49,119 nucleotides of DNA from a phage: sequence record PZ465523.1; one strand, written 5' to 3'. Shown here piece after piece: positions 4,838 to 41,928 of this stretch. Numbering within the stretch: position 1 is the stretch's first letter; each line of letters starts with the position of its first letter. The position numbers and the translations under genes are program-made. Below the pieces are notes generated by a model that saw nothing but the letters and a program-made list of their open reading frames with translations, was not told where the DNA came from and ran no database searches.

Positions 4838-5434
4838 ATGCAACTATCACCAGAAACCAACGAAATCCTTCCGGCTCTGTTCAATGCTCGCAACAAATTC
4901 GCGAAAGCAAAGAAGGATGCAAAAAACAATCACCTGAAAAACTCTTACGCAACGCTTGACGCAATGATGGCGGCAGTTAGCCCGGCGCTCACTGATAACG
5001 ATATTATGATCCTGCAATCAATGCTGGACACCAGCACGGAAACGACTTTCCATCTTGAGACGATGCTGATTCACAAATCCGGGCAGTGGGCTAAATTCTT
5101 CATGATGATGCCGATTGCAAAACGAGATCCGCAAGGAGTAGGTTCCGCAATGACGTATGCGCGACGTTACTCATTAGCCGCAGCGCTTGGAATTAGCCAA
5201 AGTGACGACGACGCGCAGCTTGCGGTGAAATCCGTCAAGGACTGGAAAAAAGAACTTGATGCGTGTGAAGATATCGAATCACTGAAAGAGGTATGGGCTA
5301 ACGCTTACCGCCAGACGGACACGGCGAGCAAGTCAATCATCCAGGATCACTACAACGCATTGAAGGCTAAGTTTGAGATCGGTAAAGCTCGCGGCATTCG
5401 CCCGGCGCAACCGGAACAGAAAAAAACAGGTTGA
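4838..5434 (+). CDS. erf: ERF-family single-strand annealing protein
   Basis: GSAMTYARRYSLAAALGI matches the ERF signature; start chosen at ATG after RBS CAGGAGA. Confidence 0.7.
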   Translation: MQLSPETNEILPALFNARNKFAKAKKDAKNNHLKNSYATLDAMMAAVSPALTDNDIMILQSMLDTSTETTFHLETMLIHKSGQWAKFFMMMPIAKRDPQGVGSAMTYARRYSLAAALGISQSDDDAQLAVKSVKDWKKELDACEDIESLKEVWANAYRQTDTASKSIIQDHYNALKAKFEIGKARGIRPAQPEQKKTG

Positions 5435-11143: not shown

Positions 11144-11556
11144 TTACAGACAATGGTGATTATTTAGAGTTTTACGAGCGAGATCCTAGCGACACTCGAA
11201 AGGAGGACGCTCATCAGGTGGATTGCGTGTCCTGGCTGAAATACAATTTCCCTCACCTTCTATTTTGGCACACTGTCAATGAAGGTGAAAAAACAATCAC
11301 ATCGGCACTAAGGGATGAACAAGCTGGATTACTTAAAGGCGTGTCAGACTTCGTTATCCTGATTGGTGTCAACTCACGATACCCGTTTGCAGCAATAGAA
11401 CTCAAGCGGGTTAATAAGTCAGGCAAAGGAAAGGCGTCACCAGTCAGCGATAAGCAAAGGGAGTTTCTTCGAAAGGTCCGGGAGCGTGGAGGCTTCTCTG
11501 CCGTCGCATACGGATTCGCGCAATTCAAGATCTCAATTTACGAAATGATGAAATAG
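11140..11556 (+). CDS. VRR-NUC-like nuclease domain protein
   Basis: 138 aa with conserved D...E.K spacing typical of VRR-NUC; start overlaps helicase stop. Confidence 0.5.
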   Translation: MITDNGDYLEFYERDPSDTRKEDAHQVDCVSWLKYNFPHLLFWHTVNEGEKTITSALRDEQAGLLKGVSDFVILIGVNSRYPFAAIELKRVNKSGKGKASPVSDKQREFLRKVRERGGFSAVAYGFAQFKISIYEMMK

Positions 11557-20005: not shown

Positions 20006-20569
20006 TCAGGATAGCTTTCGCGCTTCATCAATGATAACAGGTTCGAGACGCTCAAGTCGAACGCGGAACGTGTTCATAAATCCTTCGTTATTCTTCAATA
20101 GCTCGAAGGCGTCTGTTGCCTCAATGGCGCTATTTCCCATGTAGGCAACTACGCTCTTTTGCGTCTTGCGTGAGATCGCCACCACGCGGTAAATATTATC
20201 ACTCATACAATGCCTCCTTAACACGGTGCGCAATGCAGGAATTGACGGTGATTGAGTAGTTTGCCACGCCCATAATGCAATATTGCCAAGCTCGGTACGC
20301 ATTGATGGATTGTTAAGCTGGATTATCGTCTCTCCAGTATCTTTATCTACGAAGCGAGACACGCCCAAATGGTCAACCACGCGCGTTACGCGGTTCACGC
20401 ACTCCATTGCATCACTTACGCCGTAATAAGCGCTCAGAGCGGCTCTCACGGCCTTCTCTTGCTTGTTGTAAATCTTGCGCGCTATGTTCTCGATCGCAAT
20501 CTGCTCTTTTTCGTCAGTCTGTATTGCCGTGCTTGCTGAGAAGTCCAAGTCAATGAACTGCTTAAACAT
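20006..20569 (-). CDS. Hypothetical protein (187 aa)
   Basis: Start at ATG 20569 after RBS GAGGAAAG, downstream of box promoter at 20601..20645. Confidence 0.55.
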   Translation of the reverse strand: MFKQFIDLDFSASTAIQTDEKEQIAIENIARKIYNKQEKAVRAALSAYYGVSDAMECVNRVTRVVDHLGVSRFVDKDTGETIIQLNNPSMRTELGNIALWAWQTTQSPSIPALRTVLRRHCMSDNIYRVVAISRKTQKSVVAYMGNSAIEATDAFELLKNNEGFMNTFRVRLERLEPVIIDEARKLS

Positions 20570-22856: not shown

Positions 22857-23432
22857 ATGAAAACTCAGCTTAAAGAAGTAACGGAATTCGAACTCAACTT
22901 GCCGGACTACATTCGCAAGGCGATTGAAAATCACCGTTCAGGGAGTGAGTTCTCAATCACCGGAAAGCAAATGGTAGCTATCTACGTGCATGAGCAAGCC
23001 GAGATCGTAAAGATCACTCAGGATGTTGAGCTAACCGAGGACCAGATTGATGAGGCTATCATTAACGAGTACACGTCGCGCTCAGCCTGGTTGCTCGAAC
23101 GACTCACCGCTTCGTATGTTTCCAATATCATCAAGCGCCACATGCTCAAGGTGCATAACAAGGCCGTGTCGGTTCGAATCAATCGCGATCAGGTGGATGG
23201 CGTGACGATATTCATCACTGAACTGGAAGGTGAGGAAGCAGAAAAGGTCATAGGCGAAGCGAAACAGGGAAAGAGAGGACGGAAGCGTAAGAGCGTAGCC
23301 GATGTGTTCAATGCGAAGGTTGAGGCGTTCAGAATCGATCTGAGAGAGTTTGAAGGAAGCAACATCTCGGTATCGGATCTCAATAAACTGGTGGAGCAAT
23401 TCCGCGCACATTTACTGGGTGAGGAGAAGTAA
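22857..23432 (+). CDS. Hypothetical early protein (191 aa)
   Basis: First gene of rightward early operon; acidic protein with Lys/Arg cluster KQGKRGRKRK. Confidence 0.55.
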   Translation: MKTQLKEVTEFELNLPDYIRKAIENHRSGSEFSITGKQMVAIYVHEQAEIVKITQDVELTEDQIDEAIINEYTSRSAWLLERLTASYVSNIIKRHMLKVHNKAVSVRINRDQVDGVTIFITELEGEEAEKVIGEAKQGKRGRKRKSVADVFNAKVEAFRIDLREFEGSNISVSDLNKLVEQFRAHLLGEEK

Positions 23433-23434
23433 TC

Positions 23435-23590
23435 ATGAACAAGAAGAATGAAGGCAAAAAGAGCATTAGCCGTCACTTGGACACGTTCAAGCTGGATACT
23501 AAAAAACTGAGCGCGAACCGCATTCAACTTAGTAGCATCAATGAGATCGTGCGCCAGATGAAAGCGCATATCGAAAAGTGTGGACTGTGA
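23435..23590 (+). CDS. Small basic protein (51 aa) not in ORF track
   Basis: Strong RBS GAGGAGAAG; ATG 2 nt after upstream stop. Confidence 0.45.
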   Translation: MNKKNEGKKSISRHLDTFKLDTKKLSANRIQLSSINEIVRQMKAHIEKCGL

Positions 23591-23603: not shown

Positions 23604-23648
23604 AATAGCACTTTTTGTTAAAACCGGATCGGAATAACCTGGTATAGT
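23604..23648 (+). promoter_or_regulatory. Box-type promoter: AATAGCACTTTTTGTTAAAA, 22 nt, TATAGT
   Basis: Read directly; upstream of gene 23680..24168. Confidence 0.55.
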
Positions 23649-23679
23649 AACCCCATCGACAACGAACGAGGACGCAAAC

Positions 23680-24168
23680 ATAAAAATCAAATTACTTTGC
23701 ACTGGCGGTTACAAGGGATTCACCCGCAACCTGGAAGCAGACCCTATCGTGGTTGATGCGGTTAAGTGCGATTCCAGCACTGGAGGCTACCGCGTTAAGG
23801 TTGACGATCTGGTTAAAGCTGGCGTGTACGATCTTGACTATGGACTTTCGGTTAGCCCTGTATTTGGTACGGCTGACTTTAACGAGAATGACGGAACGAT
23901 GTTCTTCTTCGAATGGGAAGTTCAAGCAAATCCTAAGCCGCGCAAGGTTCGACTTCTCAGTAATGGCGGCTACCCGCTGCGACAAGGCTATGAGAACCGC
24001 ACATTCCCAGTTATCGTGGACTTTGAAGAAATTACTAGCAATCTGGCATACGTTAACGATGAGCAGTTGCGAGCCGTTGGATTTGTCGGCGGGATGAATA
24101 AAGAGACGCTTTGCTTCTTCCACTGTAACGCCGAGCCGTTCGATATTGAGTGCGAGTTAGTTTACTAA
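23680..24168 (+). CDS. Cys beta-hairpin repeat family protein; apparent ATA start (ORF-track GTG at 23749 is the alternative)
   Basis: Frame open from 23638; RBS CGAGGA + 7 nt + ATA aligns with leaders of neighbouring genes; repeats IKLLCTGGYKGF and VKCDSSTGGYRVKV. Confidence 0.5.
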   Translation: MKIKLLCTGGYKGFTRNLEADPIVVDAVKCDSSTGGYRVKVDDLVKAGVYDLDYGLSVSPVFGTADFNENDGTMFFFEWEVQANPKPRKVRLLSNGGYPLRQGYENRTFPVIVDFEEITSNLAYVNDEQLRAVGFVGGMNKETLCFFHCNAEPFDIECELVY

Positions 24169-24209
24169 GCACGAATTGTTAAAAGGGGATTTGTCCTGAC
24201 TGGTATAAT
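24166..24209 (+). promoter_or_regulatory. Box-type promoter: TAAGCACGAATTGTTAAAA, 22 nt, TATAAT
   Basis: Gene stop TAA is the first triplet of the box; hairpin GGGGATT...AATCCCC. Confidence 0.55.
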
Positions 24210-24239
24210 CCCCAAGTAAACCACTAAGAGGAAAGAGTT

Positions 24240-24737
24240 ATGTTGAAATTAAACGAGATTAAATTCCCTGTAGTTTTTAACACTATTAGCTGCGGAAAAA
24301 TAACCTGCCATAGCAAAGACCGTGCAACAGATTCGTCATTCAATGAGTGCCATCCGTCTATTGTTGGTAATCTCATTGAGCTTCATAACAAGCACAACCC
24401 TGATAACATCCCGTCTCTTCCATATTATGTTGAGTATGTTGGACCCGGCTGGAAGGCTGGTTGGAAAGTTGGTAGAGCAATCTTTCATTCGTCAAAGCCA
24501 GAAATCAAGCCATCGCTACAGTGCACTCAGATCGAGAACATGCCATTGAGCGCGACGCTAAAGGGAGTCCAGCTTGATAGCGAATCCTGGACCGAGATTA
24601 CCGCCACACCTAAAACTATTGAGGTGCACGATGATGTGGTGATTCTCCTGTTGCATTACGGCGGCTTTAAGCACAAGACTGTATCAGGTGAAATCAGCAT
24701 TAAGCGCGGAACGCTTGTACGCTACGAGGTGAAATAA
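24240..24737 (+). CDS. Hypothetical protein (165 aa)
   Basis: RBS AAGAGGAAAGAG; ATG start. Confidence 0.55.
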   Translation: MLKLNEIKFPVVFNTISCGKITCHSKDRATDSSFNECHPSIVGNLIELHNKHNPDNIPSLPYYVEYVGPGWKAGWKVGRAIFHSSKPEIKPSLQCTQIENMPLSATLKGVQLDSESWTEITATPKTIEVHDDVVILLLHYGGFKHKTVSGEISIKRGTLVRYEVK

Positions 24738-26530: not shown

Positions 26531-26890
26531 ATGAAACACTTAATTTGCATTGAAACGCCTAACGATGAATACACTCTTCACGGTATCGGAATGTTCAAAG
26601 GTCACTACATGACAGCAAGCATTCATGATGCGCGACTATGCGATGGCGATCTGATGATTATATCAAAAGAAGTAAATCCGTACATTATGCAGAATCTTGG
26701 CAATAACGAATATATGGCATACGGCTGCAACGCCGTGTACAAGCATATCAAGATCCGCAAGCGTGTCGTGCGTGCATTCAAGAAGATTGCAATGAAATAC
26801 TGGAAGATGAGCAAGAAGGACGCCGGACGCTGGCGCGCAATGTTGCTGACTCGTACTTCTATCGTAACGGTGAGTCCCGCTACTTCCTGA
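26531..26890 (+). CDS. Hypothetical protein; C-terminal region may continue in another frame
   Basis: RBS CGAGGAA; alternative frame 26707..26976 encodes a more protein-like tail ending SCW. Confidence 0.45.
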   Translation: MKHLICIETPNDEYTLHGIGMFKGHYMTASIHDARLCDGDLMIISKEVNPYIMQNLGNNEYMAYGCNAVYKHIKIRKRVVRAFKKIAMKYWKMSKKDAGRWRAMLLTRTSIVTVSPATS

Positions 26891-28516: not shown

Positions 28517-28549
28517 TACCTCATCGACAACCAAGAGAGACAAATCGAA

Positions 28550-34566: not shown

Positions 34567-35049
34567 GTGAATTTTAATGATTTGTTTTACCATGAAGGAA
34601 AGGATCTCATATGAAAGGTTAGCACATCAAGAAGGGTAAAGGTTGGTGATGTAGCAGGATGGAAGGATGAGCTAGGGTATGTTTATGTAAGAGTTAACGG
34701 TAAGCTAATTCCTGCTCATAGGATAATATGGGAGATGCACTACGGAAAAATTCCAGAAGGTATGGAGATAGACCACATAAATCATATAACCGACGATAAC
34801 AGGATTGAAAACTTAAGGCTGGTAACGAGGAAAGATAACTGCAAAAACGTATCCATGAGCAAATCTAACAAGAGCGGAGTGGTTGGAGTTAGCTGGTGCA
34901 AAAGGACTTGCAAATGGTTTGCATCAATTAGAGTTGATAGAAAGGAAAAGTTTTTGGGTAGATATGATAAAATTGAGGATGCAGCAGCAGCAAGAAAGGC
35001 GGCTGAGTTAAAATACAATTTTCACAAAAATCACGGGAGTAAAAAATGA
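34567..35049 (+). pseudogene. HNH homing endonuclease with AP2-like domain, interrupted by in-frame TGA at 34612..34614
   Basis: Strong RBS AAGGAGGTG + GTG 34567; TGA at codon 16; downstream EIDHINHITDDNRIENLRL...DNCKN and AP2-like WCKRTCKWFASIRVDRK. Confidence 0.55.
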
Positions 35050-41611: not shown

Positions 41612-41928
41612 AAAGGGCGGTTTATCTGTTATATCAGAAACCGCCGACAGAAGAGCAATTACGATCGGTTGGCCTTAGTCTTTCTGACTATGAGGACGAA
41701 GAACCGGAGACGATAATCGGCGACGCTGAGATGGTTAAGTCGTGGAATGTTTTTACGTCAATGCTAACTCAGTGGAGAAGTTCAGGCGCTGGCGCTTATG
41801 GTCTTGATTATAATGTTTTGCCTATGTTGTTCAAAATCTATAAAATAGATGATGAAGAACTGGCATTGCAGGACGTTAGAATCATGGAAGCGAAAGCGCT
41901 TGAAATGATTGCTAAGCAGAATAACTAA
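41294..41928 (+). CDS. Tail assembly chaperone frameshift product (GT-like), via -1 shift at A_AAA_AAC 41602..41608
   Basis: -1 frame is open from slippery site to stop at 41928; hairpin GGCGG...CCGCC starts 8 nt downstream. Confidence 0.55.

Follow-up and report, generated by a model that had tools for sequence, protein, structure and literature searches.

Initiation at near-cognate codons is inefficient in Escherichia coli, where AUA, AUC, AUU and CUG each support about 1–2% of the initiation seen with AUG, and the only natural non-canonical starts confirmed in that organism are those of infC and pcnB, both of them AUU (Hecht et al., bioRxiv 10.1101/063800). Start codons are also sites of loss-of-function mutation in phages: in PhiM1, changes in the start codon of M1-23, a small non-essential gene, arise as escapes from abortive infection (PMC5377504). 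T1-like phages have an additional feature, a direct repeat of 21 nt (aaATAGCACnnnTTGnTAAAA) that was described in one of them, TLS, and whose role was left open between an UP-like element, a promoter element, an enhancer site and an operator (PMC11447400). Here we describe a T1-like phage gene that combines these themes, in which such a repeat, a −10-like hexamer, a conserved leader and a Shine–Dalgarno (SD) sequence lead to ATA in the place where relatives have ATG.

The DNA analysed (sequence record PZ465523.1; 49,119 nt, hereafter the window; all features of the locus lie on its plus strand) is, judged by sequence similarity, that of a T1-like coliphage (Tunavirus, Drexlerviridae). Matches to Eco_BIFF, phiL, Sfin-3 and others, at 91–95% identity, cover half of the window, the phage itself has no entry in the phage collection, and the 1-kb region around the ATA locus is 84–94% identical to T1-like phages. 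The nearest homologous locus, L037, is 97.0% identical over 23605–24240 (636 nt), with 19 mismatches and no gaps. The gene at 23680..24168 is a homolog of T1 orf71 (CPTT1_007, AAP49929.1; PHROG 9595, 162 aa), and its reading frame of 162 codons and a TAA stop is intact by comparison with the family profile and homologs and by its pN/pS values. Its 489 nt equal the annotated length of the homologous coding sequences in phiL, Chapo and T1, the 162 positions of the PHROG 9595 profile align 1–162 on residues 1–162 of the product (E = 7.6 × 10−99), and among 5.8 billion proteins searched there were 54 homologs, 46 of which are full-length (160–165 aa) at 77–98% amino acid identity. Identity to T1 orf71 and its Tunavirus orthologs is 78–98% at the amino acid level. 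The gene has kept the genomic position and the upstream signals of the orf71 family (repeat box, −10-like hexamer, leader and SD) and, as in T1 and the Tunavirus orthologs, it is placed between two repeat boxes, upstream of an orf70 homolog. It differs from these orthologs in its ATA start and in two uncommon residues, the private Pro64Thr and Asp17Asn, the latter at a nearly invariant Asp.

Upstream of the locus, the segment 22857–23590, with genes of 191 aa and 51 aa, gave megablast matches in the phage collection over its last ~60 bases only. Among the contigs examined, just three, those of phiL and two Logan assemblies, encode an identical 51-aa product; at L037 the 191-aa gene directly precedes the orf71 homolog and the 51-aa gene is absent. 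The putative early region around 22857–23590 is locally mosaic. Translational coupling of the orf71 homolog to the upstream ORF, which ends at 23590, 90 nt upstream, was considered and rejected because the repeat box and the −10-like hexamer stand between the two.

The box at 23605..23623 (ATAGCACTTTTTGTTAAAA) fits the T1-like consensus with zero mismatches, lies between genes, points in the same direction as the gene that follows it, and shows in itself no difference from the T1/TLS repeat. The repeat (ATAGCACnnnTTGnTAAAA) occurs 23 times in the window, where 0.2 occurrences would be expected, for example at 11553, 16348 (−), 21476 (−), 23605, 26457 and 28473; the next box identified in the repeat scan, at 24166..24184, overlaps the stop codon of the orf71 homolog and stands at the head of the next gene's transcription unit (ATG 24240). 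The hexamer TATAGT (23643..23648) lies 19 nt after the box at 23605, is preceded by TGG and is conserved in homologs. This arrangement recurs across the window, with TATAnT exactly 19 nt after ~15 boxes, often with GG or TGG before it, followed by a leader of ~25–40 nt and an SD. The initial annotation had spoken of a box promoter. The box in question is the known T1-like repeat, with a −10-like hexamer after it, but a promoter scan found no canonical sigma-70 promoter at the locus (−35/−10 elements 16–18 nt apart), where the gap from TTGTTA to TATAGT (TTGnTA to TATAnT) is 22 nt. The repeat box and hexamer together may reasonably be read as a promoter, the hexamer possibly as an extended −10 element given the TGG that precedes it, and the fixed box–hexamer spacing suggests a phage-specific, uncharacterised promoter architecture.

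Between hexamer and gene lies a 5′ leader (23654..23679; CATCGACAACGAACGAGGACGCAAAC) that is nearly invariant among homologs, as are the box, the hexamer and the SD in the alignment with phiL, Chapo and T1. Its first 10-mer, CATCGACAAC (23654–23663), is found again at 28522–28531 upstream of ATG 28550, so the leader sequence earlier reported at 23655 and 28523 is indeed common to both genes, with the reported coordinates one base off. The SD, CGAGGA at 23667..23672 (GAGGA, 23668–23672), had been proposed as the ribosome binding site 7 nt before the ATA, and both its sequence and its 7-nt spacer are as described. Its predicted duplex with the anti-SD has a dG of −5.9 kcal/mol, inside the span of −4.7 to −9.3 kcal/mol seen for neighbouring genes.

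The reading frame is open back to 23638, directly after a TAA at 23635–23637, and contains no ATG, GTG or TTG in the gene frame between 23638 and 23749, as the initial annotation had noted for ATG. In the alignment of homologous loci, the codon at 23680..23682 is ATA at the position of the ancestral ATG start, with a private G-to-A change at 23682; the column is ATG in 29/29 homologous loci covering the codon. These 29 loci comprise phiL, Chapo, T1, 15 IMG/VR loci and contigs recovered via neighbouring genes, some of which duplicate the same phage. MKIKLL opens every homolog inspected or aligned (about 50) that retains the N-terminal region. We also looked for the opposite case, a homolog beginning at the equivalent of 23749 (MVDAVKC), and found none among those inspected or aligned. 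The invariant ATG column, the end-to-end profile alignment and the MKIKLL termini thus confirm the earlier placement of the true start at 23680.

The remainder of the genome provides an internal comparison. All of the ~15 units of repeat box, −10-like hexamer and leader reach an ATG or GTG after the SD except the unit at 23605, which reaches ATA, and the pattern is therefore not attributable to chance. A start-codon survey in which every Eco_BIFF coding sequence was compared with the window, with ~60 genes common to both aligned from their first residue, likewise found that a credible start had been lost only in the orf71 homolog. One other position drew attention in this survey: at 41659 the window has TTA where Eco_BIFF annotates the TTG start of the 89-aa gene that follows the major tail protein gene (tail chaperone region). 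Because the start given to this gene in ULIM2 is a later one, the Eco_BIFF start is probably mis-annotated, and we do not count it as a second start-codon loss.

Several observations bear on the age of the change. Compared with 16 homologous coding sequences of the same length, only two of the 489 nt are private to the window, 23682 and 23869. The second is a C-to-A change (Pro64Thr) in a loop modelled with low confidence (pLDDT <50 for residues 55–64). A further substitution in the N-terminal segment, again G-to-A, lies at 23728 and gives Asp17Asn (GAC to AAC); it is not strictly private, since one other homolog also has N at residue 17, and 48 of the 49 homologs in the alignment have D there. 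Against the same 16 homologs, pN/pS was 0.09–0.32, values indicating a history of purifying selection on the gene, with no apparent decay since the start change. The exact pattern with ATA (GAGG N8 ATAAAAATYAAATTRCT) had no match in viral contigs, and its six metagenome matches and one genome match were all unrelated chance matches by tblastn; in the protein collection, neither the 139-aa nor the 162-aa product had an exact match, and the products of both neighbouring genes had none either. The ATA is confined to this genome, the gene has just one further private base, and its pN/pS is 0.09–0.32; the G-to-A change at 23682 is therefore best described as derived and recent, or else as an artefact.

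Relatives carry frameshifted (P0047–P0049), half-length (P0050, P0051 and P0053), degraded (P0054) and fused (P0052) versions, and because of these the orf71-family gene appears to be dispensable. In the fused form, domain 1 continues into the C-terminal half of the next gene (the homolog of window 24240–24737), and natural single-domain forms of the family measure 89–90 aa; the variants suggest that recombination or deletion is recurrent at the locus. The protein is probably built of two similar ~80-aa beta-rich domains in tandem. In the AF2 model (pLDDT 77), residues 2–5 form a beta strand that is mirrored by strand 89–92, and phage proteins of a single domain, 70–88 aa long, match one half of the model. 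Profile–profile comparison of the N-terminal and C-terminal halves placed residues 1–5 on 88–92 (E = 5.5 × 10−4) with a probability of only 30%, and BLASTP between the halves gave no match, so the tandem-domain reading is tentative.

We propose, with a probability of roughly 0.55, that a single G-to-A transition has produced a recent strong hypomorph or near-null allele of this orf71-family gene. The ancestral gene would have been short, conserved and dispensable, positioned behind a repeat-box/−10 unit and opened by an ATG 7 nt after the GAGGA SD. The transition at 23682 would have turned this ATG into ATA and left the remainder of the gene and its signals intact. Ribosomes (30S) would still dock on the intact SD, but the initiator tRNA would pair poorly with AUA and IF3 would be expected to reject such complexes, so that the full-length protein might fall to roughly 1–2% of the ATG level, and GTG 23749 would contribute no more than traces of a product truncated at its N terminus. 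The allele could be tolerated because the gene is non-essential, and it may even have been selected, should the protein impose a cost or be recognised by a host defence. The PhiM1 M1-23 escape mutants offer the nearest parallel, since there too one base of the start codon is changed in a short, dispensable gene that is otherwise intact. In PhiM1, however, abortive infection is known as the selective agent and none is known for the window allele; by analogy, selection for loss of the window gene is conceivable. Searching the literature yielded no specific account of the orf71 family or of escape mutants in Tunavirus. Under the proposed reading, the gene is best classified as a hypomorphic or defective allele that is still a member of the orf71 family.

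The alternative that survives best is that the phage really has ATG and that the A at 23682 is a sequencing or polishing artefact, a consensus or base-call error; we consider this possible, and of real but lesser weight. The change is unique among relatives and absent from public collections, and it sits in an otherwise perfect gene. The same assembly also contains three isolated 1-nt homopolymer frameshifts in conserved genes, a possible signature of error-prone sequencing: A6 to A7 at 5420–5426 (5426), which changes the last ~20 residues of a recombinase relative to Eco_BIFF and ULIM2; C4 to C3 at 20266–20269 (20269), which relative to the same two phages fuses the homologs of a 123-aa and a 66-aa gene (ORF 20569..20006); and G3 to G2 at 26831–26834 (26834), which relative to Eco_BIFF only shifts the frame of a 148-aa gene homolog after residue 101. 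The fourth of the other private disruptive lesions is a nonsense change, TGG (as in ULIM2) to TGA, that places a stop at 34612–34614 in an HNH endonuclease gene (34567–35049). This gene, flanked by the minor capsid gene on one side and the scaffold/capsid genes on the other, begins at GTG 34567 behind an AGGAGG SD and is 99.4% identical to ULIM2 over 521 nt; the only canonical ORF left to it starts at ATG 34735 (104 aa). The changes at 23682 and 34614 are both G-to-A directly 5′ of an A run, a context miscalled by some platforms.

The distribution of these lesions argues against error. All five, the start codon and the four others, fall in accessory genes or C-terminal tails, and none falls in the ~27 kb (~55% of the genome) occupied by large structural and replication genes, a placement that by a rough estimate has a chance of ~2% for five random lesions; it is expected of variants filtered by selection and improbable for random errors. 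Two of the three indels, moreover, are in short runs of 3–4 bases. The private substitution spectrum of the window is also unremarkable (G>A 227, C>T 293, A>G 245 and T>C 276 relative to Eco_BIFF and ULIM2). A G-to-A mutational bias, through mutagenesis or deamination, was considered as a separate source of the change and rejected on the same ordinary spectrum. We infer that the base is more probably real than a consensus error.

A third reading, very improbable in our estimation, is that the AUA is an evolved, functional start that keeps expression very low and sensitive to IF3, as is the case for infC with its AUU. The AUU start of infC is a long-established autoregulatory feature. The window gene resembles infC and pcnB in having a near-cognate AUN codon at the correct distance from an SD, with weak, IF3-discriminated initiation to be expected from it; the leader, the SD with its spacing and the ORF remain untouched, and AUA gives measurable initiation in E. 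coli (bioRxiv 10.1101/063800). What defines such starts, however, is a non-AUG codon that orthologs share. The ATA of the window is private to one genome, the non-AUG codon is not conserved in any of the 29 relatives, and with only two private bases the gene bears no sign of an old state, so it is not a member of the infC/pcnB class. Of the readings entertained in the initial annotation, mutation and base-call error therefore both stand, whereas a dedicated AUA start is disfavoured because the codon is confined to this genome.

The last reading, that the gene now works from GTG 23749 (23749..23751) as a 139-aa protein, follows the mechanical ORF call (23749..24168) and takes the first canonical in-frame start, the one a gene caller would annotate, yet it is scarcely credible given a weak SD (−3.3 kcal/mol, against −5.9 for the ATA) with a 12-nt spacer, a codon that encodes an internal residue (Val24 in homologs, I or V in its column) of the conserved PI[VI]VD motif and at which no homolog inspected or aligned starts, and a product deprived both of domain 1's first strand and of the conserved MKIKLLxxGGYKGFTRD segment. 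The initial annotation had already ranked this GTG as the poorer start. Eighteen of the first 23 positions are conserved at ≥90% in a 51-sequence alignment, a level of conservation that marks the 23 codons between ATA and GTG, which rank with the best conserved of the family and take in its first predicted beta strand, as real coding sequence. Because these codons are conserved and the SD is weak and badly spaced, GTG 23749 is evidently not the native start; it could possibly serve as a minor internal initiation site, and on the AF2 model a Val24-started product would lack the first strand together with the conserved GGYKGFTRD segment.

Most likely, the locus does not reveal a new way of initiating translation, start-codon loss and consensus error both being ordinary phenomena. 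If AUA were nevertheless the natural start here, no earlier example would be on record for an E. coli system, and the putatively early protein would be made at a trace level or its synthesis would be tied to the state of the host initiation factors. For annotation, the consequence is direct: the 139-aa protein that a gene caller would start at GTG 23749 is almost certainly a wrong call, and the locus should instead be recorded as an orf71 homolog with a mutated start, or be corrected if the base is erroneous. If the mutation is real, the phage would be a naturally occurring knock-down of a conserved, putatively early gene, and could be compared with its ATG-bearing relatives, for example in sensitivity to host defences.
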